A DNA stretch of 64,000 nucleotides from Scenedesmus sp. PABB004 (Eukaryota): assembly GCA_014905635.1 (NCBI GenBank), contig JABVCE010000007.1:1364001-1428000 (forward strand), given 5' to 3'. This document shows positions 7,532-56,289 of this stretch, in pieces. Numbering within the stretch: the first letter of the stretch is position 1; every line of letters begins with the position of its first letter. The notes under the pieces are model-generated. The model worked only from the letters and a program-made list of their open reading frames with translations. It had not been told where the DNA came from and made no database searches. The position numbers and the translations under genes were made by a program.

Positions 7532-9914
7532 ATGGAGCTGGAGCTCCACCGCATCGACCTGCTGCAGACCAGCGCCGCGGCGCCGGGCGCGATGGTGGTG
7601 CGCGCGGCGCTCGCGCTCGCTCGGCGGCGGCGGGGCGCGCTGCTGCGGCGGCCGGCCGCGCCCGGGGCGTGCGCGCCGCGGGAGCGCGCCGCGAGCGCGC
7701 CGCCCGCTCCCGCAGGTGCTGCCGCCGGGGGAGAACAAGACGCAGAAGGTGGCGGTCGGCGACCTCGCGGGCGTCGTGCAGTGCTTCTCCATCAAGCGCG
7801 GCGAGGTCGCGCTCAGCTTCAAGACGCTCCCCGCGGCGCACAAGGTGCCGCGCCGCACCGCGCGCCGCTGGCGCTGGCGGCGGCGCCTGCGCCGCGCAGC
7901 GCGCCGTCGGCCGCGGGCCGCGCGCCGCGTCAATTGGCGGCCACGGCTGCGCGCCCGCGCGTCGCAGGTCACTGCGCTCGTGCTCGGCCGCGGCGCGCGG
8001 CAGGCCGACAAGCTCTTTGTCGCCGCCGGCGACACCGTGAGAGCGCGGCGCGCTCGCCGGCGCGCCCGCCCGCGCCGACCGCCGCCCGCGCGGCCGCCGG
8101 CCGCACGCGCGCGCGCGCGCGGCCGCGGCGCCCGAGCCGCCACGGCGCCGCGCCGGCACCACGCACGCAACCGCAGGTGCGTGGCATGACCAAGAAGGGC
8201 CGCGAGTTCTTCCGCCTCACCACGGCGCTGACCGACGCCGTGTGCGCGCTCGCCGTCGCCGACGCGCACATCTGGGCGGCCGCGGCGCACGTGGCCGCGC
8301 GCTACCTCGACGGCGCGGCCCGCGGGCGCTACGTCGCGCCGGACGCAGTCACAGCGATCGAGGCGCGCCGCGGGCGCGGGCACGGCGGGGGAGCCGGCCC
8401 CGCCCGCGCGCCGCATGGCACGACGCGCGCCCCCCGCCCCCGCCGCGGCGCGCCGCCCGCCCGCGCAGCTGCTGCCGCTCGGCGGCGGCGGGCAGCAGCT
8501 GCCGGCGCTCGCGTGCCGGGACTGCTGCATACGCGTGCTCGGGCCGGACGGGCGGCCCCTGTTTGAGGTGCCGACGGGCTCGCCGCCCACCGCGCTCCGG
8601 TGCGTGCCGCGCGGCGCGCGCCGCGCGGCGCGGCGTGACGGCGCGCGCGCGACGCCCGCGCGCTCCCGCCCCGCCCCACGCGCGCAGGCACGTGCCGGAC
8701 CAGCACGCGTCGGCGCAGCGAGCGGCGGGCGCGCAGGAGCTGTTGTACGGCTGCCAGGACGGGCGGCTAGTGCAGCTGCTGGTCGACGGCGCGGCGGTGC
8801 GGCAGGGCCTTGTCATTCCTGGCACATGCGCAGGCACTGGCGGCGGCGGCGGCAGCGGCGAGGGTGGCGGGCAGCCGGCGCAGCAGCAGCGCGCGGCAGT
8901 GACGGCGATCCACTGCGGTGCCGACTACAGCAAGGTGCGGCGGCGCGCTCGCCGCCGGGGCTGGGCTGCGGCCGCCGCGCGGCGCGGCGCACGTGCAGCT
9001 GGGCGGCCAGCGCGCGCGGCACCCACGGCGCCGGGCGCGCCGCCGGGCGCGGCGCCGCCGCAGACGGGCTGCGCCGACATCGTGCTGGGGCGCGAGGACG
9101 GCTCGCTGGAGGTGTGGGACGTCGACGCCGGCGGCGTGCCGCAGCTCGTCGCGTCGCGGTCGCTGCCCGAGTCGATCAGCAGCGTGGGTGGCGGCTTCAT
9201 CACCAGCGCGGCGCGGCCAGACATACTGGTGCACACCTTCACCGGCAAGGCGCGCGCGCCGCCTGGGGGTGGGGCCCAGCGGGCGGGGCCCAGCGGGGCC
9301 CAGCGGGGAGGGCCCAGCGGGGTGGGGCCCGTGTGTGTGTGTGTGGGGGGGGGGGGGGTCTGCTTGGGGGAGAGGCGGGCGGGCGCTCAGCCGCGCGCCC
9401 GCCGCCCCGCGCGCCGCCACTGCAGGTCATCGCGTTTGCCAGCGACCCCGGCGCGCTCGCGCTCGCGGCGGCGGCCGAGGCGCCGGGGCGCGGTGTGCGC
9501 GCGCCGCCGCAGCAGGAGCTGGTGGCGGCGCTCAACGCGCGCATCGCGCGGGAGACGGCGGAGCTGGCAGACCTCCGCGCGCGCGTGGCGCGGGAGCGCG
9601 AGCGGTGCGGGCGCGCCGCCGCGCGCGGGGGAGCGCAGAAGGGAGCGCGCGGCTGCGCAGTGCGCCTGTCGCCCCCGCCGACCCGCTGCCGGCACCGCCA
9701 CGTGCGCACGCCCCGCGCAGGGTGGCCGGCAGCCAGGCGGCGGCGGCGGCCGCGCCGGCGGCGGTCGTGGACGTGCGGCACCGGCTCACGCTGCAGCGCG
9801 ACGAGGGCTGCTATGTGCTCTCGGTCGAGGCGGCGGTGTCGCTCTTTGCGTTGGCACTGCAGGTGGGCAGCCCCGCCCCGCCCCGCCGGCGCTCCGGCAC
9901 GGGGCGCGCGCGCT

Positions 9915-9945
<31 letters not shown>

Positions 9946-11287
9946 AGTGCACGGTGCCGCTGGTGCTGCTGGACCAGCCGGGCAGCACCGCCATCTTCAG
10001 CCGCTCGCCGCCCGACCCCGCCGCCGGCAATGCGACGCTGGCGACGTTCCGGTGCCAGGAGTCGACCAGCCGGCTGAGCGTCAGGTTCAGCGCGCGAGAG
10101 GGCGCGCCGGGGCGGCTGTGCGCGTACGTCATGCCCGCGCTGGAGCCCAAGACCTGCGCCGTGATCGAGGTGCAGCTGCCGCTGCTCTGCATGCACCACG
10201 CCGTGGCGGGGCTCGGGGACGGCGGCGGCGCGCCGCCCGGCGCGCCCGGCGCGGCTGCGGCGCAGCAGCTGCGCGACAGCAGGCCATGCAGCGAGCTCAT
10301 GCTGCAAGGTGCGTGGCGCCGGGGCTGGCAGCCGCCGCCGCCGCCGCGGTCATGCGCGTGCACAGCGCTCGCGCACCTTCCCTGCCCCCTGCCGCCGCAG
10401 GCAGCTTCACAGCCCAGGACATGCACGGCTGGCTACGCGGCGTGCTGCCAGACGTGCCCGCGCACCTGCCCGCCGGCGCGGCCGGCGGCGCGCAGCTGTT
10501 CCGGGAGTGCCGGCTGGGGTCCATGCTGAGCTGCGAGTATGCCGCGGGCGAGGCCACCTTTGTGAGGTGCGCCGGACGCAGGCTGCCCACGGAGCGCAGA
10601 ACGGCTGGGCCGCCGCGTGCCGTGCCCTCACGCGCCGTCGCGCCGTGCTGCGCAGCGACTCGCTCACCACGCTGGCCATCCTGCACGACGCGCTGCTCGC
10701 CACGGCCACGGCGGCCAAGGCGCGCGTGAGCACGCGCTACGCCCTGCACCCCGGCGCGCTGCGCCACTGCTGCGGCCTGCTGTGGCCGCAGCTGGAGCAG
10801 CAGCGCGCCCTCGCGCGCCAGCGCAAGCTCGCGGCCGCGCTGCAGGTGCGGCGCGCGGCGCGCCGCGGCGGCGGGCCCCGTGTGCGCGCGCGCGCTGCCA
10901 CGACGCTGCGGTGGCCCTGCGTGCGCGTGCGTGCCGTAGGAGCTGCAGGCCCAGGAGGGCGACACCTCGTTCCTGGCGCCAGAGTACCAGAGCATGCTGC
11001 AGCAGCTGTCCTGCAAGTCCGCGCACGACGCTGCGCCGCGCCAGCCCCAGCGCGCGGGCGGCGGGTGCGGCGGTGCAGACGCGGACGCGGACGCGCAGCA
11101 GGAGCAGCTGGACGCCGTGGTCGACGCGTTCAAGCAGCTGCTGCGAGACTACGCCCGCCTCGCGTCGGGCGCGGCCGTCGCGCTCAAGGGCGCGGTCGCG
11201 CGGCTGGACTCGCTGCTGCGGCAGGGCGGGCCCGGCTGCACGCTGGCGGCGGCGGTCGACTGCATCGCCGCCGCTGCGGGGGCGTAG
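7532..11287 (+). CDS. BBS7: Bardet-Biedl syndrome 7 protein (BBSome subunit), about 15 exons
   Basis: MELELHRIDLLQT..., TQKVAVGDLAGVVQCFSIKRGEVALSFKTLP, VRGMTKKGREFF, LACRDCCIRVL, LATFRCQESTSRL, PKTC, SDSLTTLAILHDAL. The motifs are colinear with BBS7. Confidence 0.93.
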
Positions 11288-19084: not shown

Positions 19085-21414
19085 GAGGCGCGGGTATTGC
19101 TTCGCGCCAGCGCCGCGGCGCGGCCGTGGCGGTCATCGCTCGAAACGCGTCCAGCGGCGGCTCAGCGAGCGCCCTGGGTTCGCGCGCGGGCCCCATCCTG
19201 TGTTGGTGACCACTGCGCACACCCGCACCAGGCAGCGCCCTGCGCCCGTGCGTGGACGCTCCCGCGCACCGCACGCGACAGAGCAGCAGCAGCGCTCGCC
19301 GCCCGCGCCGCCGCGCCGGGCTGCGCCACGTCGCGGTCGGCTCTGTCCGCCATGGCTACATGCGCGCGCCACACGCCAGCAGTGAGCGGGGCGGGCCAGG
19401 GCGCGCTGCGGCGTCGCCCGCTGCTGCCGCGGGCCGCCGCGCCCCCTGCAGTGGCAGTGGCGCGCGGCGGGCGGCGATCCGGGGCCCTGAGGGGGCTGCA
19501 CGTGCGCCCGAGCTCCCGCACCAGCGCCCTGCCAGCACAGCCGCGGCGGCAGGCGGCAGCGATTGAGCAGCGGCGGGCGCTGCCGCCTGCGGCGCCTGCC
19601 CCCCGCGCGTGCTCACCGCGGCCGCCCTGATGCACGCCTGCGCCCCGCCGCCCGTGCTCTGCAGGCCAGCGCCGACGGTGGCGGCGCACACGAGGCGGGC
19701 GGGCTGCCGCCGGAGCTGTGGGTATGTGTGCTGGCGGAGCTGCCCCTGGCGGAGCGCCTGGGCGCCGCCGCGCTGGTGTGCAGCACGTGGCGCGCCGCCG
19801 CAGACGCCGCCACGACCAGCATCGAGGTCAAGCCCACTGATCTGGTCGGCCTGTCAGCGTGGCTGCCAGGTCGCGCCGGGCAGCTCACGCGGTTGAGCGT
19901 GGGCCCGGGCCCCGCCCCGGGACCCCCCGACGAGCGCCCCGCCCTCGCCCTTCGACGCCTGGCGCGGCTGGAGGAGCTGCAGCTGGACTGGCTGAAGCTG
20001 GAAACGCCGGATGGCGGCGGCCTGGCGCCGCTGGCGGGCCGGCTGAGCAGCCTGGTGCTGAGGTGCTTCCTGCCGGCGCCGGAGCTGGAGTCGCTGGGGG
20101 CGCTGAGCAGCCTGCGGTGCCTGGAGCTGGCCGGCATGTGGGGCGAGGCAGCGGCGGTCGTGGGCGCGGCGCTGGATGAGCTCACGCAGCTCACGCGCCT
20201 GAAGCTGGAGGAAACGCGCGTCCTGCCCGACGCGGCCGTCGCGCCCATCAGCGGGCTCGCGCAGCTGCGGGAGCTGGAGCTCATCGGGCACCAACCAGTG
20301 GATCTCCCAGGGCACCCGGAGTTTGCTGTGGCCGTGCCCGACCTGCCGGCCAGCCTCACATTTCTGCAAGCAAAGGATGTGCAGCTGCCGGCGGGCGCGC
20401 TGGCTGCGTGCGCGGGCCTGCGCGAGCTGTCCTTGAAGCGCGCTGACAACGACGACGCCGCCGCGCTGCTGCGTGCGGTGGGCGCGTGCACTGCTCTGAG
20501 CGCGCTGAGCATGCGTAGCATGGACTGCATGCCCCTGCCGGCTGCCGCCTGCGGGCACCTGGCGGCGCTGAGCGGCCAGCTCGTCAGGATGGCGCTGCTT
20601 GGCGGACAGAACCGCTGAGCTGTGGCGGCGTCCGGCGCCGGGGCGCAGATGTTCCCCGCTGGCCGGAAGTGGTCGCGCCTCGAGCACCTTGAGCTTGGTT
20701 GGTTTCAACATGCCGCCGGGGGGTGCGGACGCCGACGCAGACGCGCTGCGCGCCGCGTGCCAGGCCGACGGACAACCTGGTTGCCGCTTGCCCTGGGCTG
20801 CAGAGTCTGTGCCTGCAATATGCCGGCAGGCTGCGTGGCGGGAGCGCCTCCGTGCGCGGGCTGCGCGCGCTCACCCGCCTCACGCGCCTGGAGTTCAGCG
20901 TGTACGGCAACGCGCTCCGCATGCGGGACGACGACCTGCGGACCGTGCTGGCCCCGCTCACGTCGCTGGAGGCGCTCCTCGTCTCGGCGGACGACCTGAC
21001 CTACCGCGGCGTGCTGCACCTCACCGCGCTGCGCGCGCTGCGCAAGCTGCAGGTCTTGGGCAAGATCTTTGGAGCCAGCGGCGAGGAGGTGACCAGCATC
21101 GAAGTCAACAACAAGGTGATGCCTTGCGCCGGTGGGGGTGCTCCTCTGCGCTCGCCAGCGCTCACCCCGCGGCACTGCTCACCACGCCCGCCCGCGCCGC
21201 GCCGCAGGCCCCCGCCGGCTGCGCGCCCGACGTGTGGCTGCAGCTGCAGGACGTGTGCGCAGAGCGGAGCGCAGAGTGCGCGAAGCTGGTGCAGCGCGCC
21301 GAGGCGGCGGAGTAGCGTGCTGCGGAAGCGGCAGCACGCACGGCGGCGGAGCGTGCGGCGGGGCGGCAGCTGGCGGCGGCACAGGCGGAGCCCGCGGCGC
21401 TGAGGGCAGAGCTC
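19085..21414 (+). repeat. ~2.3-kb duplicated cassette, copy A (inverted copy B at ~48843-51602)
   Basis: Homology starts at gaggcgcgggtattgcttcgcgcc and ends at ...gctgagggcagagctc. It covers upstream non-coding DNA, both introns and the 3' flank. Ends are approximate. Confidence 0.9.
19352..21315 (+). pseudogene. F-box-like/LRR protein gene, copy A, disrupted
   Basis: F-box-like LPPELWVCVLAELPLAERLGAAALVCSTWR followed by LxxLxxLxL repeats. Relative to copy B it has an in-frame TGA at 20616-20618, a ttgg duplication near 20695-20702 and a 2-nt deletion near 20770. Start codon is uncertain. Confidence 0.75.
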
Positions 21415-34448: not shown

Positions 34449-36438
34449 ATGAGCGGCAAGGCGGGCAGCAAGCGCGATGGCGGGGCCGCGCTCGTGGCGC
34501 AGCAGGCCAAGAAGATCAAGAGCATCGACGTGCGCGGCGGCGCCGCTGTCGCCGCCGCCGCCGGCCGCCCGGGGCCGCGCTCAGCGCCCCCGCCCCGCGC
34601 GCAGGATGTGCTGCGGCTGGTGAAGAAGCTGTCGGAGGCGAGCAAGCGGGAGACGGGCGCCGAGAAGTGAGGGCGCGGGGCGGCAGTGGGCGCGGCGCTG
34701 CCGCCGCGCCGCGCTCGCCCGCCCACGCGCGGCGCCCGCCGCAGGAGCCTGGCGGAGCTGAACATCCCCCACGACGTCAGGGAGGTGCGGTCGCCTGCGA
34801 CGGCGCCGCGCCGCGAGTTGCAGTGCCGGCGGCGCCGCGTGCGCGGGGCCCGGGCGGCCACGCGGCGGCGCCGTTTCGATCGCCCCGGCGGCGCTTCCCA
34901 GCTGCTGCTGCTCCCCGCCCGCCGCGTGTGCAGGTGGTGGACAAGGACGCCGACGCGGTGCTGGACGAGATTGAGGCGGCGATGCTCGAGGTCGCAACCA
35001 CCATCCTCGCGGGCCACGGCTTCAGGCGCGCGCGGGGCTCGCTCACTCACTCACTCACTCACTCACTCACTCACTCACTCACTCACTCACTCACTCACTC
35101 ACTCGCCCCCCGCGCCGCGTGCCGCGCGGCTCGGCCGACCCGCGCAGCCGACCCGCGCCGCGCCGCGCGCGTGCCGACCCGCGCCGCGCGCGTGCTGACC
35201 CGCGCCGCGCCGCGCGCGTGCTGACCCGCGCCAACGCCGCGCGCCGCGCGCAGCTTTGACGTCCCCTCGCGCGCCAAGGGCAACCAGCTGTACGTCCCCG
35301 AGCTCGACCGCATCGTGCTCAAGGACAGCGCCGCGAAGCGCTCGTTCGCGTCGACGCAGCAGTGCCGCAAGACGACCGTCACCGCGCGCATCCTGGGGCT
35401 CGTGCACGAGCTCTGCCTCAAGCACATCAACGTCACCAAGCGCGACCTCTTCTACACAGACGTCAAGCTCTTCGAGGCAAGCGGCGCGCGCCGTGTGGCG
35501 CGCCGCGCGGCGCAGCGCGGCTTGCCCGTGCGCGGCGAGGCGGCGAGGCGGCGAGGCAGGGCGGCGGCGGCGCGGCCCCTGACGTGCTCGCCGCGCCGCG
35601 CCGCGCGCGCGCAGGACCAGACCCAGTCGGACGCCGTGCTGGACGACCTCTCCTGCATGCTCGGCTGCACGCGCTCCAGCCTGCACGGTGCGCGCGCCGC
35701 CGCCCGCCCCGCCGCCCCTCCGCCGCGCCGCGCCCACGCTCCGTCGCCGCCGCCGCCTCTGCTGCCGCCGCGCCGCGCAGTCGTGGCGTCGGAGAAGGGC
35801 GTCGTCGTGGGGCGGCTCACGTTCACGGAGGACGGCGACCACATCGACTGCCGCAAGATGGGCGTCGGCGGCAAGGCCATCCCACCCAACATCAGCAAGG
35901 CGCGCCTCGCGCCTTGCGCAGCACGCCTCGCGCCGCCGCACGCGGTCGCCAGCACCTCTCGCGCATCCGCGTCCGCGCTCGCGCGCTCTCACACACACAC
36001 ACACCCGCGCGCCCGCGCGCTCACACGCCCGTCCACGCCGCCGGCGCCGGCGCCGCCGCCGTCCGGCGCAGGTGTCTGGCATCGCGAGCGACGCGCTGTT
36101 CATCCTGCTGGTTGAGAAGGACGCCGCGTTCATGCGCCTCGCGGAGGACCGCTTCTACAACGACTACCCGAGCATCATCATCACCGCAAAGGGGCAGCCA
36201 GACGTCGCGACGCGGTGCGCGCTGTGTGGGTGTGGGTGGGTGGGTGGGTGGGCGAGTGAGTGGGTGTGGGTGTGGGTGTGGGTGTGGGTGTGGGTGTGGG
36301 TGTGGGTGTGGGTGTGTGGGTGTGTGTGTGTGGGTGTGAGCGTGGGCGTGTCGGGGGGAGGCGCGGCGGAGCGAGAGGCCGTCGCGCGGTGCGTGGAAGG
36401 CGCGGCGCGCGCGCCGCTGCCGCGCGCACGTCCCCACC

Positions 36439-36481
<43 letters not shown>

Positions 36482-37243
36482 GCGGCGCGCGGCGCGTGGG
36501 CAGGCTCTTCCTGCGCAAGCTGAAGCTCACGCTGAAGATCCCGGTGCTCGCGCTCGTGGACAGCGACCCGTACGGGCTGAAGATCCTCAGCGTCTACATG
36601 AAGGGCAGCATGAACATGAGCTACGACAGCAGCAACCTCACCACGCCAGACATCAAGTGCGCGCCGCCGCGCCGCGAGCCGCCGGCGCGGGCCGCCGCCG
36701 GCGCCGCCGGCGGCAGCAGCGCGGCGGCGGCGCGCGGGGCGGGGCTGGCTGGGCGCGGCGGCGGCGCGAGGGGCAGGGCTGGGCCCGGCGCCCGGCGGGC
36801 GCTCGGCTGGCCGACCGCGCGCCGCTGCCGCCGCTGCTGCCGCCGCGGCGCGCGCAGGTGGCTGGGCGTGCGGCCCAGCGACCTCGACCGCTTCAGCATC
36901 CCCGCGCAGTGCCGGCTGGAGATGACGGACGAGGACATCAAGACCGGGCGCAAGCTGGTGCGCCGGCGCGCCCGCCCGCGCGGCGCCGCGCCGCCCGCCC
37001 CGCCCCAAACCCGCCGCGTGCGCTGCGTGCTGACCGCCCACCCCGACTGCCGCTGCTGCGCCGGCGCCGGCGGCGCAGCTGGAGGAGGACTTCATTCGCT
37101 CCAACCCCGAGTGGGTCGCCGAGCTGGAGCTGATGCTCAAGACTCGGGAGAAGGCTGAGATCCAGGCGCTCAGCAGCTTCGGCTTCCAGTACCTCAGCCA
37201 GGTCTACCTCCCGCGCAAGCTGCAGGAGGGCGACTGGATCTGA
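34449..37243 (+). CDS. TOP6A: DNA topoisomerase VI subunit A (SPO11-3/RHL2 clade), about 12 exons
   Basis: [34 protein letters not shown] (catalytic Tyr), [28 protein letters not shown], and [30 protein letters not shown]. Confidence 0.96.
35042..35104. repeat. (TCAC)n microsatellite in a TOP6A intron
   Basis: About 15 tandem TCAC units are visible. Confidence 0.95.
36261..36320. repeat. (GTGTGG)n microsatellite in a TOP6A intron
   Basis: Tandem tgggtg units are visible. Confidence 0.9.
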
Positions 37244-48619: not shown

Positions 48620-48929
48620 GACCCCGCGGCAGGCGGTGCCGCGGGCGTGCGGCGGCCGCGCGCGGAGGCTGCAGAGGTGGGCAGGCCTGCTGGCGGCGGC
48701 GCGGCAGACGGAAGAAAGCAATGGGCCGCCTCGCGTCGTTGCCCCCCTCCGCAAGTAAACAGGCGCCGCGGCCAGCGCGCCCACCAGCAAACAAGCACGC
48801 CCCCCCCCAGCGACCTCCTCACAGCACGCCCCTCAGCCGCGCGAGTTCTGCCCTCAGTGCCGCGGCGTCCGCCTCCGCCGCTGCCGCGCGCTGCTCCGCC
48901 GCCGTGCGTGCTCCCGCTTCCGCAGCACG

Positions 48930-50919
48930 TTACTCCGCCGCCTCGGCGCGCTGCTCCTGCACCAGCTTCGCGCACTCCACGCACCGTGCCGCGCACACTT
49001 GCTGCAGCTGCAGCCACACGTCGGGCGCGCAGCCGGGGGGCGCCTGCGGCCAGGCGCGCGAGCGGGCGTGGGCGAGCGGCGCCGCGGGGTGGGCCGGTCG
49101 GCACAGGGAGGCGCTGGGCACCCAACCGCCGCCGCCAGCGGCGGAAGGTGCGCCGCCTCGCATCACCTTGTTGTTTATTTCGATGCTGGCCACCTCCTCG
49201 TGTTCGTCGTCATAGCTGCAGCCGTGGACCTCCAGCCTGCGCAGCGTGCGCAGCGCGGTGAGGTGCAGCACGCTGCGGTAGGTTAGGCCAACGTCGGTCG
49301 ACATGATCAGCACCTCCAGCGCCAGGAGCTGGGCCAGCTCCGTCCGCAGGCCATCACCAAGCAGGGAGAGCACGTTGCCGTACACGCTGAACTCCAGGCG
49401 CGTGAGGGGGGTGAGCGTGCGCAGCCCGCGCACGGAGACGCTCCCGCCACGCAGCCTGCCGGCATATTGCAGGCACTGACTCTGCAGCCCCGGGCAGGCG
49501 GCAAACAGGCTGTCCACGTCGGCCTGGCACGCGGCGCGCAGCGCGTCCGGGTCGGGGTGTCGTGGCACATCAAAGGCAAGCTCAAGGCGCTCGAGGCGCG
49601 ACCATGTGCGGCCAGTGGGGAAGAGCTGCGCGCCGGCGCCGGGCGCGACAGCGATGGGCTTGAGACCGCCAAGCAGCGCCATCTCGACGAGCCGGCCGCT
49701 CAGCGCGGCCAGGTGCCCGCAGGCGGCAGCGGGCAGGGGCATGCAGTCCATGCTACGCATGCTCAGCGCGCTCAGAGCAGTGCACGCGCCCACCGCACGC
49801 AGCAGCGCGGCGCCGTCGCCGCTCTCAGCGGCCATCAAACGCAGCTCCGCAGGCCCGTGCACGCAGCCAGCGCGCCTGCCGGCAGCTGCACATAATCTGC
49901 TTGCAGATTTGTGAGGCTGACCGGCAGCTTGGGCACAAGCTTGGCGGTCGTCGCTTGCCAGCGCTCTAGCACCAGCTCCCGCAGCTGCGCGAGCCCGCTG
50001 ATGGGCGCGATGGCTGCGGTGGTGATGACCTCGCCGATCAGCTTCAGGGCTGTCAGCTGCGTGAGCTCATCCAGCGCCGCGCCCACGCCCACGTCCACGC
50101 CCACCGCTGCCTTGCCCCACCTGTTCTGCAGCTCCAGCCGCCGCAGGCCGCTCAGCGCGCGCAGCGACTCCAGCACCGGTGCCGGCAGGAAGCACCTCAG
50201 CACCAGGCTGCTCAGCCGGCCCGCCAGCGGTGCTAGGCCGCCGCCATCCGGCGTTTCCAGCTTCAGCCAGTCCAGCTGCAGCTCCTCCAGCCGCGCCAGG
50301 CGCTGGCAGGGCAGGGCAAGGGTCGGGCACCTGTCACAACTCCAGCCGAGGGACGGGGCAACGCTCAACCTCGTGAGCTGCCCAGCGCGACGTGCCAGCC
50401 ACGCACACAGGCGGTCCAAGCGCTGCTGTTCAGCGGCCTTGACCTCGACGCTGGTCGTGGCGGCGTCTGCGGCGGCGCGCCACGTGCTGCACACCAGCGC
50501 GGCGACGCCCAGGCGCTCCGCTAGCGGCAGCTCCGCCAGCACACACACCCACAGCTCCGCCGGCAGCCCGCCTGCGACGCGCGCACCGCCGCCGTCGGCG
50601 CTGGCCTGCTGAGCGCGGGCGGCGGGGCGCAGGCGTGCATCAGGGCGGCCGCGGTGAGCACGCGCGGGGGGCAGGCGCCGCAGGCGGCAGCGCCCGCCGC
50701 TGCTCAATCGCTGCCGCCTGCCGCCGCGGCTGTGCTGGCAGGGCGCTGGTGCGGGCGCTCGGGCGCACGGGCAGCCCCCTCAGGGCCCCGAATCGCCGCC
50801 CGCCGCTCCGCCACCGCCGCTGCAGGGGGCGCGGCGGCCCGCGGCAGCAGCGGGCGGCGCCGCAGCGCGCCCTGGCCCGCCCCGCTCACCGCTGGCGTGT
50901 GGCGCGCGCCGGTGGCCAC
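48930..50919 (-). pseudogene. F-box-like/LRR protein gene, copy B, with one frameshift (could be a sequencing error)
   Basis: LPAELWVCVLAELPLAERLGVAALVCSTWR followed by LRRs. A 1-nt deletion at ~49847 gives CTG CGG AG where CTG CGG GAG is expected. The copy A ATG (19352) corresponds to GTG at 50919. Confidence 0.65.
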
Positions 50920-50952
50920 GGCGGACAGAGCCGGCGCGCCTCGGCCGCGCCG

Positions 50953-51107
50953 GGGCGAAAGCCAAGCCCCCTTGGGCGAAAGCCAAGCCCCCAGCGGCAA
51001 AAGCCGGCACGCCTCGGCCGCGCCGGGGCGAAAGCCAAGCCCCCTTGGGCGAAAGCCAAGCCCCCATGGGCGAAAGCCAAGCCCCCATGGGCGAAAGCCA
51101 AGCCCCC
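50953..51107. repeat. 21-bp minisatellite, six copies in two blocks (2+4)
   Basis: Unit gggcgaaagccaagccccc(tt/at). Each block is preceded by gccggc(g/a)cgcctcggccgcgccg. Confidence 0.93.
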
Positions 51108-51623
51108 AGCGAAGCAGCCGGCGCCAGCGAATGCTTCTCCGCACGGCAGCGCCACGCCGCGCGGCGGCGCCCGCGGCGCAGCGCAGGACCGGCGCCGCCG
51201 GCAGCAGCGACCCGCGCGCGCTCGCGGGCGTCCTCGCGGCGCTGCAGCTGGCGCTCAGCCCGCTGAACGCACAGGCGGCGCCACGAAGCGCGGCATCCTC
51301 GGCGCGCCGCGCTACGAGAGCGACGTGGCGCCGCCCGGGGGGCTTGGCGCAGCCCGGCGCGGCGGCGCGGGCGGCGAGCGCTGCTGCTGTCGCGTGCGGT
51401 GCGCGGGAGCGTCGGCGGTCGGGCGCAGGGCGCTGGCTGGTGCGGGCGTGCGCAGTGGTCGCCGACGCAGGTTGGGTGCTGCACGCCGGGCCCCGCGCGG
51501 GAACCCAGGGCGCGCTGAGCCGCCGCCGCAGGACGCGTCTCGAGCGATTACCGCCACGGCCGCCGCGCCGCGGCGCAGGCGCGAAGCAATACCCGCGCCT
51601 CGCTGCAAGGCGCGACGGCGGCG

Positions 51624-54048: not shown

Positions 54049-56289
54049 CTAGCTTCGCGGGTCGACGCCAAGGAGCATCTTTGTCTCCTCAAAGACGTAC
54101 CAGCTGATGCCCGCGGCGGGGGCGAGCTTGATGAGGTTGGGCAGCAGGCCCTGGGCGCGCGCGGCGCGCGGCGGGGGGGGGGGGGGGGGGGCGTCGGCGT
54201 CGGCGTCGGCGGGCTGCTCCTGCGCCCCGCGGCGGCGGCCCCGCCACTGCCCCCTCCGCCCTCCTGCTATCCACCCCCGCCCACCCACCCACCCCCGCCC
54301 ACCCACCCACACACGCCCACCCACCCACGCCCACACGCCCCCACCTTGTAGAAGCCCTTGACGCCCTCGTGCACCAGCGTCTGGCGCACCACGTCGGCCA
54401 TGCCGCTGTACTTGACCGGCCGGCCCCCACGCCCTGCGCCTGCGCGGGGCGGGGCGGGGCGGCGCGGCGAGGGAGGGCGGGGCGGGCGAGCGAGGGCGGC
54501 AGGTGAGCGAGGGCGGCGTGACGGCGGCGCGGGCGGAGGGCGCGGGGCGCGCTCGTCAGGGCGTGCCGCGCCGCGGGCGGGGCCTCCAGCGCGCCCGCGC
54601 CCGCGCGCCCGCCGCGCGCGCGCCGTCACCTGCAGCCGCGTGCGCACGAGCGCGAGGGGGTACGACACAAACTGCGCGATGCTGCTGCTCGCCATGCCGG
54701 TCGCGACGATGCCTATGTGGGGCGGCTCGCCGTCGTAGGCCTCGAGCAGCCTGTCCTTGAGCAGCTCAAAGAGGCAGATGTCGACGCCGGCGTAGGGCAG
54801 GATGCCGCACTGGGCGTGTGGGGGGGGGAGCGGGTGTGTGGGTGTGGGTGTGGTGTGAGTGGGGGGTGGGTGGGGGTGGGGGGGGGGGGGGGGGGGGGGG
54901 GGGAGTGAGCGGGTGTGGGTGTGGTGGGTGGGTGTGGGCGGGTGTGGGTGTGGGCGTGGGTGTGGGCGCGGCGGAGAGGGAGGGAGAGAGAGGGGGAGAG
55001 AGGAGAGAGGGGACGCGCAGGCGCCGCGCCGCGTGCACCGCGCCGCCGCCGCCGCCGCGCGTCACCATGGATGGCACGAGCCCCCTGTAGAAGGGCGCGA
55101 CGCCGCCGGCGCGCCAGAGCTCCGCCGCGGTGGGGAGGATGCCGCGGTACTCGGCCGCGCTGCAGACGGCGAGGCGCGTGCGCACGGTGTCGAGCGGGTA
55201 CACCAGGCCCTGGGGGGGGGTGGAGGGGGGGTGGGGGGGGTGCGGAGGGGGGGGGTGCGGAGGGCGCGAGGGTGAGAGAGGGGGCGGAGAGAGAGGGAGG
55301 GAGGGAGGGAGAGAGAGAGAGAGAGCGAGAGAGGGAGGGAGAGCGAGAGAGAGAGGGAGGGAGGGAGAGAGGGAGAGAGCGAGAGGGAGGGGACGAGAGG
55401 CGCGCGCGGCGCGCACCTGGCCGACCGCGCCGGACACGCCGCCGCAGACCATGCGCTCCCAGGGCGTGATGTCTGCGTGGTCGCGCTGCAGCGCGTGGCG
55501 CAGGTGGTCGTTGAGCGCGAGCTTGATGCTCGTCTCGGGCGCGATCTTCAGCACGTTGGTGCCGTTGCCCTTGAAGTAGGACCGCACGCTGCCTGGGGGG
55601 TGCGGAGGGGGAGGGCGGGGGCAGGTCAGGCCCACGGCGGCGGCGGCGGCGGGGGGCGGTGGGCGCGGGGGGCGCGGGCGCGGCCGCGCGGGCTGCTGCG
55701 CCGCAGCGGCGCGGGGGGCGGCCGCGCGGGCTGCTGCGGCGTCGCGGCGGCGTCGCGGCGGGCCGCACCCTCTGCCGACATGAGCCGCATGCCCTCACGG
55801 ATGGTGAGGCGCTGCCCCTCCTGCACCTGCAGCAGCATCTTCAGCCGGTCGACCGGCGCGGTCGCGGTGCGGCTGATCGCGCCCGCCAGGCCTGCGCGCG
55901 CGGCGGCGCGGCGGCGGGTCGCTGGCACGCCCGGCCGCGCGCCGCGCGCGTGAGGCAGGGCCTGCCGGGCGGCGCGCCGCACCGCCGGCGAAGAAGAACT
56001 TTGGTACGCGCCAGGGGTCGCCCACGTCCTCGTCGTCGTCGCCCCGCGACCGCGACGCCGCGTGCCGCGCGTCGTCGTCCTGCTGCGCCACGTTCACCGG
56101 CGCCGACAGGGCGTGGTACTGCAGCACCACGGTGCCGCCGCCGCCGCCGCCGCCGCCGCTGCCGCCGCGCTCCGCGCCGCCGGTGCTGCTGCTGCCGCCG
56201 CTGCGCTGGCCGCCGCCCGCCCAGGGCGGCCGCTGCGCTGCTGCGTGCCCTGCCTCCATGCCCATCCCATAGCCGAGCCCACCCAGCAT
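54049..56289 (-). CDS. Mitochondrial carrier of the ATP-Mg/Pi (SCaMC/APC) type; start codon uncertain
   Basis: FFAGGLAGAISRTATAPVDRLKMLLQV, FKGNGTNVLKIAPETSIK, YPLDTVRTRL, GILPYAGVDI..FELLK, YPLALVRTRLQA and PNLIKLAPAAGISWYVFE. Confidence 0.9.

Follow-up and report, generated by a model that had tools for sequence, protein, structure and literature searches.

Inverted F-box/leucine-rich repeat copies in Scenedesmus sp. PABB004 form a mosaic of near-identical blocks and divergent loops that gene conversion in a decaying pair may explain

The DNA stretch analyzed here (hereafter the window, 64,000 nucleotides of contig JABVCE010000007.1, assembly GCA_014905635.1, of the alga Scenedesmus sp. PABB004) contains two inverted copies of a gene encoding an F-box followed by leucine-rich repeats (LRRs). 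The duplicated unit of copy A, consisting of the gene and short flanks, occupies positions 19338-21352 (+) according to inverted-repeat arms, BLASTN and alignment, and that of copy B occupies 48893-50933 (-) according to inverted-repeat arms and alignment. The copies are inverted relative to each other, with a distance of approximately 29 kb. In the repeat search, 19182-21352 is joined to 48893-51486 by arm pairs I1-I10, I12, and I17, and upstream of copy A a weaker homology to B continues at 19182-19281. The BLASTN alignment of A with B covers 2565 columns at 78.3% identity and has 56 gap openings, and TBLASTN detected no further copy in the 64-kb window. Just upstream of B, a tandem array that is absent from A (50929-51108; 21-nt units, 4.0 copies, 98% matches, nested within a 73-nt repeat of 2.1 copies) breaks the upstream homology of the two copies.

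Ahead of the F-box, no ATG occurs in the long reading frame of A. Based on the nucleotide sequence, a putative exon 1 consisting of ATG and nine codons was placed at 19352-19381 (+), with a GTGAGC donor at 19382 and in phase with the F-box frame beginning at 19665; the putative intron 1 or non-coding leader between them (19382-19664, +) ends with CAG at 19662-19664. The F-box is located at 19704-19805 (+), corresponding to residues 14-47 of the translation from 19665 (Pfam F-box-like, E=7.9e-6). The LRR region of about 15 repeats, delimited by repeat alignment, the structural model and Foldseek, spans 19884-21115 (+). It is followed by a putative intron 2 of 92 nt (21116-21207, +; GTGATG...CAG), across which the two closest database proteins, described below, align without this stretch. 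This intron explains the change of frame before the last exon (21208-21315, +), whose translation ends with a TAG stop codon at 21313-21315. In copy B, on the minus strand, the stop codon TAA is at 48930-48932, intron 2 is at 49044-49166 (123 nt, open by chance), and the F-box starts at approximately 50566.

According to the Pfam analysis, copy A exceeds the cut-offs of both F-box-like (26.0 bits, cut-off 24.3) and F-box (22.7 bits, cut-off 20.5), and copy B scores just under them (22.4 and 20.1 bits, respectively). The LRRs are irregular, with 21-39 residues each, and no Pfam LRR model reached its cut-off. The AlphaFold 2 (AF2) model of the first 317 residues of A (pLDDT 88.5, pTM 0.88) shows three helices at the F-box and then a solenoid of alternating strands and helices. 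The best match of this model found by Foldseek in the PDB was SKP2 in the SKP1-SKP2-CKS1 complex (8byl_B, E=2.4e-7, TMq 0.59); 176 PDB matches had E<=0.001, and MAX2, D3, FBXL3, TIR1, COI1, and FBXL17 were among the top 45. As modeled, the architecture is that of FBXL proteins, in which the F-box is directly followed by an LRR solenoid. This agrees with the first-pass annotation, made from the sequence alone, which had called the copies F-box/LRR paralogs. A SKP1 gene was not found in the window.

The two copies differ very unevenly along their length. The global MAFFT alignment of A 19338-21352 with B contains 2087 columns, namely, 1704 identical columns, 263 mismatches, and 120 gap columns, which corresponds to 81.6% nucleotide identity over the aligned units; in windows of 30 columns, the identity spans 0.10 to 1.00. 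Runs identical in A and B were found at 19956-20023 (68 nt), 20028-20077 (50 nt), and 20459-20539 (81 nt), with three substitutions over 19960-20080, and the longest identical run (140 nt, 19515-19654) is located 5' of the F-box in putative intron or other non-coding sequence. When the 263 mismatches were reshuffled 5000 times among the 1967 ungapped columns, the longest identical run was 42 +/- 8 (maximum 120) compared with the observed 140, and the dispersion index of the 30-column counts was 0.85 +/- 0.15 compared with the observed 3.76; each observed value was reached in 0/5000 permutations. The mosaic structure of the pair is thus an observed property. The near-identical blocks and divergent patches of two inverted copies had been reported in the first-pass annotation, and both the alignment and the permutations bear this out: the blocks it cited as examples (19960-20080 and approximately 20460-20575) coincide with the runs of 68, 50, and 81 nt, all six peptide pairs it quoted are present in the translations, and uniform divergence, which it had named among the outcomes that would count against it, is rejected in a formal alignment. 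The annotation requires one correction, in that the longest and cleanest identical stretch, at 19515-19654, is located 5' of the F-box.

The divergent patches occupy a defined place in the repeat. After the 15 repeats were aligned on the first L of the LxxLxL motif, A-B identity was 83% (75/90) in columns 1-6, 50% (60/120) in columns 7-14, and 68% (154/226) in the remainder. As had been proposed, the patches thus follow directly on the LxxLxL strand in most repeats, and in the secondary structure of the AF2 model they are the coils leading from a strand to the next helix. By LRR geometry, the patches would run along one rim of the predicted solenoid. Within the strand itself, differences counted by eye are concentrated at positions 3 and 5 (11/30 compared with 3/60 at positions 1, 2, 4, and 6; Fisher p=2e-4), which are exposed, yet are also simply the positions that do not hold structural leucines.

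A recognisable tandem repeat was found in only one of about ten patches. It is a hexamer microsatellite of B (50080-50104, -; 4.2 copies in Tandem Repeats Finder) that constitutes the 12-nt longer patch of this copy in LRR 4, and the inserted sequence is 90% alike over 30 nt to a TG-rich microsatellite at 54944-54973. A donor-like match to any patch was not detected elsewhere in the window, where off-locus matches were GC-rich chance similarities of 14-30 nt. The patches were also considered as introns, which was ruled out because they are too short and have no GT..AG ends in either copy, and as frame-shifted versions of one another or copies from elsewhere in the window, for which there were no such off-locus matches.

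The mosaic extends to sites that do not encode amino acids. The putative intron 1 is 96.5% identical in A and B (9 mismatches in 283 ungapped columns), whereas intron 2 is 56.8% identical (19 mismatches in 90 ungapped columns, with 35 gap columns); the mismatch counts of the two introns differ with Fisher p=3.9e-7. Non-synonymous (dN) and synonymous (dS) divergence was estimated by Nei-Gojobori counting in 493 gap-free codon pairs, with blocks defined by a local identity >=0.9 and patches by <0.75. The dS value was 0.056 in blocks (10/185.7 synonymous sites) and 0.359 in patches (30.2/105.7), a six-fold gap (p=1.7e-7). Since classing by identity is partly circular, 4-fold sites were additionally classed using only positions 1 and 2 of the neighbouring codons; 31% (9/29) of these sites differed in the most divergent neighbour class compared with 24/231 elsewhere (p=0.005). 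A mosaic common to silent and non-coding sites cannot be produced by selection on amino acids alone, and near-saturated patches beside 95-100% identical sequence are not compatible with a single divergence time plus such selection. The contrast implies that either the blocks were recently homogenised or the patches were imported. The dN/dS ratio was 0.98 overall, 0.58 in blocks (p=0.18 against 1), and 1.28 in patches (p=0.28, Fisher), and neither the block nor the patch value is significantly different from 1. An excess of non-synonymous change combined with uniform silent divergence at ligand-facing sites was not found in the pair.

Both copies are interrupted. Copy A has an in-frame TGA at 20616-20618 (+), where B has a sense codon at the homologous place, and the alignment with B reveals a 4-nt insertion in A at 20694-20700 (+), shifting frame 0 to frame 1, and a 2-nt deletion at 20767/20768 (+), shifting frame 1 to frame 2, inside a motif translated in B and in both close database relatives. 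Copy B has a 1-nt deletion relative to A near 49848 (49847-49849, -), which splits it into the open reading frames (ORFs) 49835-50707 and 48930-49862, and at the place of the putative start ATG of A it has GTG. The lesions of both copies fall in low-identity windows.

Sequences similar to the window were compared in freshwater metagenomes, where six runs, none of them of RNA, shared 0.08-0.14 of the sampled words and contigs of four runs were examined. No run exceeded 14% of sampled words, so these runs are probably not the source of the window, and most of the 85 placed pieces were short, <90% alike, only partly on the stretch, and probably represent GC-rich noise. Contig X5 record 27 covers 20688-20838, spanning both frameshifts of A, with one other letter and no gaps; X5 record 26 ends on the TGA of A without a difference; and X3 record 18 covers 20611-20851, including the TGA, with no other letter and three gap letters. 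The presence of the A lesions in such contigs makes assembly errors unlikely in A. A B-like contig (X1 record 5) has GT at the site of the 2-nt deletion of A. Patches 5 and 6 of the A type are found in X1 record 3, which differs at 9 sites over 245 ungapped nt, and another contig of the X1 run carries indels of the B type. From these few contigs, it appears that both copies, and at least patches 5 and 6, have been inherited stably in a related population, seemingly with no re-diversification of these patches. In the A-like X1 record 1, which covers 19883-20063, six gap letters (extra letters) occur in patch 1, where A falls 6 nt short of B; the shortfall of A may be a recent or polymorphic deletion. 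Among metagenome contigs of the Joint Genome Institute (JGI), none of 412 protein-pattern matches was confirmed by TBLASTN, and an exact 26-nt pattern from a block common to A and B gave 0 matches.

A HMMER search of 1.84 billion representative proteins gave 293 matches at E<=0.001 and only two at E<=1e-30, namely, KAF8058468 (P0001, 528 amino acids) and KAF8058473 (P0003, 615 amino acids), both from Scenedesmus sp. PABB004. In a word-indexed set of 5.8 billion proteins, the same two were the only ones at E<=1e-8 among the 8000 candidates sharing most words. In all comparisons that follow, this PABB004 pair was treated as belonging to a separate related alga, and the window itself is sourced from Scenedesmus sp. 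PABB004. The accession numbers of the two proteins are five apart and each is listed on a 559,020-base contig, which indicates a nearby pair there also, with no further member. P0001 carries the F-box PF12937. The two proteins are 64% identical in BLASTP (318/498) and show a mosaic of the same type; in the LxxLxL register, their identity was 77% in the strand, 38% in the next eight columns, and 61% in the remainder. As for the public gene models, P0003, named 'RpL37a', is a fusion of an F-box/LRR part (approximately residues 1-505) with a ribosomal protein L37-like tail (Pfam PF01907), and P0001 is missing one to two LRRs (about 45 residues) that are present in B and P0003; both models look imperfect.

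In the four-way alignment, identity was 75.3% for A-B, 74.3% for P0001-P0003, and 48-51% for the four cross pairs. Columns that differ between A and B also tend to differ between P0001 and P0003 (odds ratio 5.3, p=1e-15, 0/459 circular shifts as high), and the coincidence persists in the 403 ungapped columns (odds ratio 3.4, p=3.8e-6, 0/383 shifts). Identity to the PABB004 proteins was 58.8% at columns where A equals B and 28.3% where A differs from B, which indicates that the blocks are a constrained scaffold. In most derived indel columns, the derived state belongs to A, since the B state matches both outgroups in 16/18 columns, representing only a few events; a relative-rate test for faster decay of A found symmetric substitutions (17 compared with 16). 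For the GH20 gene next to A, three matches at E<=1e-20 were obtained, from Tetradesmus obliquus and Scenedesmus sp. NREL 46B-D3 and not from PABB004; proteins of these two algae are therefore present in the database, yet none is among the close F-box/LRR relatives. RPL37, the protein fused to P0003, has no counterpart in the window at E<=1e-3.

Taken together, these data are best accommodated, though with modest confidence, by an old, lineage-restricted FBXL-like pair whose scaffold is homogenised by gene conversion while its loops drift and which is decaying in this genome. Repeated interlocus gene conversion would homogenise the segments still similar in both copies, namely, the leader or intron at the 5' end, the F-box, and the strands and helices that make up the repeat scaffold. 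Being weakly constrained, the loops that come after the strands would gather substitutions and slippage indels and would escape conversion, probably since heterology stops conversion tracts. The outcome would be a periodic mosaic shared by amino-acid, silent, and non-coding sites alike. The pair would then decay, with the nonsense codon and two frameshifts of A all lying in a patch that was not converted, and with the 1-nt deletion and the missing ATG in B. The mosaic with its significance and its register in the repeat, the lesions, the contrast in silent sites and introns, the two-member family of the relative, and the variable positions common to both pairs are observations; conversion itself, the old age of the pair, the heterology barrier, and the exon model are inferences. 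Conversion would cover the periodicity, the silent-site pattern, the higher likeness within pairs than across pairs, and the coinciding variable positions; the dN/dS values near 1 and the location of the lesions in unconverted low-identity windows point to a pair that is decaying in this genome. As for the mechanisms proposed in the first-pass annotation, gene conversion therefore appears the best explanation of the mosaic, whereas positive selection finds no support in the patch dN/dS or in the silent sites. The suggestion that disrupted copies serve as donors holds insofar as both copies are disrupted, but no donor-like patch match exists elsewhere in the window.

Several points weigh against this explanation. 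Two DNA sequences are too few to demonstrate conversion tracts, their donors, or their polarity, and the permutation test rejects uniform divergence without pointing to a process. The 4-fold signal is modest, with a divergence of 9-11% in the three lower neighbour classes and a rise in the top class only, and alignments within the patches are unreliable. The intron 1 model was derived from sequence only. The single-base deletion of B was seen in the window alone and could be an assembly error. Selection for different specificities would likewise fit the coinciding variable positions and the concentration of differences at strand positions 3 and 5. Finally, the GH20 and RPL37 searches revealed no synteny with the PABB004 pair, so the two lineages may have undergone independent duplications.

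The fit with selection is the core of the strongest alternative, according to which A and B are a functional pair of expressed adaptors of SCF (SKP1-cullin-F-box) ubiquitin ligases with different substrate specificities, the scaffold being kept alike by conversion or purifying selection, the loops and concave positions being kept different by selection, and the lesions being bypassed. Besides the coincidence of variable columns in the two pairs and the strand positions 3 and 5, it is favoured by a GT..AG pair at 20583-20803 (GTCAGG...CAG, 221 nt, phase 0), whose removal would eliminate all three lesions of A in frame, by the P0001 model, which is also without part of this segment, and by the fact that a single base, if its deletion were an assembly error, would open B. 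However, the segment is open and LRR-like in B and is read as protein in P0003 and partly in P0001, and the donor of this intron is weak, so splicing of 20583-20803 in A would be a minority possibility. B is also without the ATG of the putative first exon, and the patch dN/dS is not significantly greater than 1. We regard a functional pair as unlikely.

Two further possibilities are, in our estimation, less likely still. The first, designated 'shared scaffold, private rim', combines both processes: conversion would keep the F-box and LRR scaffold of the neighbouring pair identical, selection would keep the loops and positions 3/5 different and so provide distinct targets, this would apply in at least two scenedesmacean algae, and A would be spliced past two damaged repeats. 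The second assumes recent independent duplications in each alga, after which the loops diverged rapidly by local slippage and indels in GC-rich tracts without gene conversion. The identity within pairs (74-75%), which is far above that across pairs, is as expected for such duplications, as are the synteny not shown, the patch that is a hexamer microsatellite, and the predominance of derived indel columns in A. On the other hand, recent duplication hardly accounts for near-saturated patches beside nearly identical sequence or for an intron 2 at 57% and an intron 1 at 96.5% identity; moreover, no recognisable tandem repeat exists in the other patches, and the substitutions of A and B are symmetric.

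The proposal of the first-pass annotation that A and B belong to a larger birth-and-death family or diversifying receptor system, as members or donor cassettes whose patches are swapped or positively selected for immune-like recognition, is very unlikely: the mosaic does exist, the patches would lie on one solenoid rim, and an immune-related adaptor role has been put forward for F-box families (Thomas 2006, as cited in PMC3030570), but there are only two loci in 64 kb, two relatives at E<=1e-30 that both come from one species, no close relative in the T. obliquus and NREL 46B-D3 proteins of the database, no patch donor in the window, almost unchanged A-type patches 5 and 6 in an environmental contig, and a dN/dS of about 1.

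The surroundings of the pair are those of an ordinary nuclear region with a G+C content of 73-82% throughout the window. The database matches of the GH20 and F-box/LRR genes point to a chlorophycean alga close to the Scenedesmaceae. The neighbouring multi-exon nuclear genes encode BBS7, class-II DAHP synthase, GH20 hexosaminidase, a V-SNARE, Spo11/TopVIA, 14-3-3, two mitochondrial carriers, a CLC channel, and a histidine phosphatase. The Pfam scan of 73 long stop-to-stop ORFs revealed ordinary nuclear genes only, and domains of transposons or viruses were absent. The BBS7 exons, which encode beta-propeller, GAE, and platform domains, are located at 8041-10726 (+) and those of Spo11/TopVIA at 35583-37130 (+), and these sequences suggest that the alga may have retained ciliary and meiotic genes. 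G/T-rich microsatellite-like arrays of GGGTGT and GGGTGG units are present at 36203-36376 and 54777-55012, with poly-G near 54880. The inverted repeats of about 2 kb formed by A and B (95-100% identical stretches; 377 nt at 95%) flank a 29-kb block of housekeeping genes and could drive its inversion.

Like SKP2, FBXL3, FBXL17, TIR1, COI1, and MAX2/D3, A and B have an N-terminal F-box and then an LRR solenoid; they differ from these FBXL proteins in a sequence identity of only 12-18%, in irregular repeats, and in the interruption of both copies. A close relative (ortholog) outside Scenedesmus sp. PABB004 was not found among the 1.84 billion representative proteins at E<=1e-30. According to the available part of Hua et al. 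2011 (PMC3030570), lineage-specific plant F-box genes include many pseudogenes and evolve under relaxed or neutral rather than positive selection ('genomic drift'). As described there, the drifting groups resemble A and B in a dN/dS of about 1 and in lesions, whereas the plant families have hundreds of members and only a pair is seen here; gene conversion is mentioned 0 times in that part of the account. As cited in the same part, Thomas 2006 (Genome Res 16:1017) considered F-box and BTB adaptors as adaptively evolving immune-related receptors with variable sites in the substrate-recruitment domain, which is the same idea as that of the first-pass annotation for A and B. The idea of F-box proteins as immune adaptors, as far as this citation goes, is thus already in print, and the earlier hypothesis is not new in kind. 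As cited, that model rests on large unstable families and site-specific dN/dS >1, neither of which is shown for A and B.

If conversion in a decaying pair is the true explanation, the locus would be a clean, small case of concerted evolution on a repeat-protein scaffold with drifting loops, in an alga of extreme GC content, a setting in which gene conversion may be strong. In that case, annotation should mark A and B as probable pseudogenes, and the fused P0003 and shortened P0001 models merit a re-check. Lineage-specific SCF adaptors of green algae are little known, and the importance of the pair would be greater if many paralogs exchanged loop modules or if the two copies were expressed with different substrates. 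Should selection keep a private rim on a shared scaffold, the pair would be a minimal algal counterpart of the evolution of resistance-gene clusters.

In LRR clusters such as plant resistance genes, chimeric paralogs combine a homogenised scaffold with divergent solvent-exposed LRR parts. The pair described here differs from these clusters in having only two copies, each of them disabled, in carrying an F-box instead of NB-ARC, and in showing no sign of selection. The lamprey variable lymphocyte receptor (VLR) is encoded by an incomplete germline gene with hundreds of flanking cassettes and is assembled somatically. A and B have in common with it only the general notion that variation comes in LRR modules; none of the requirements of the VLR system is seen at this locus, and the patches of the window recur in environmental contigs. 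The pair looks like a case of ordinary copy-to-copy conversion between damaged genes rather than a new immune-like receptor system.

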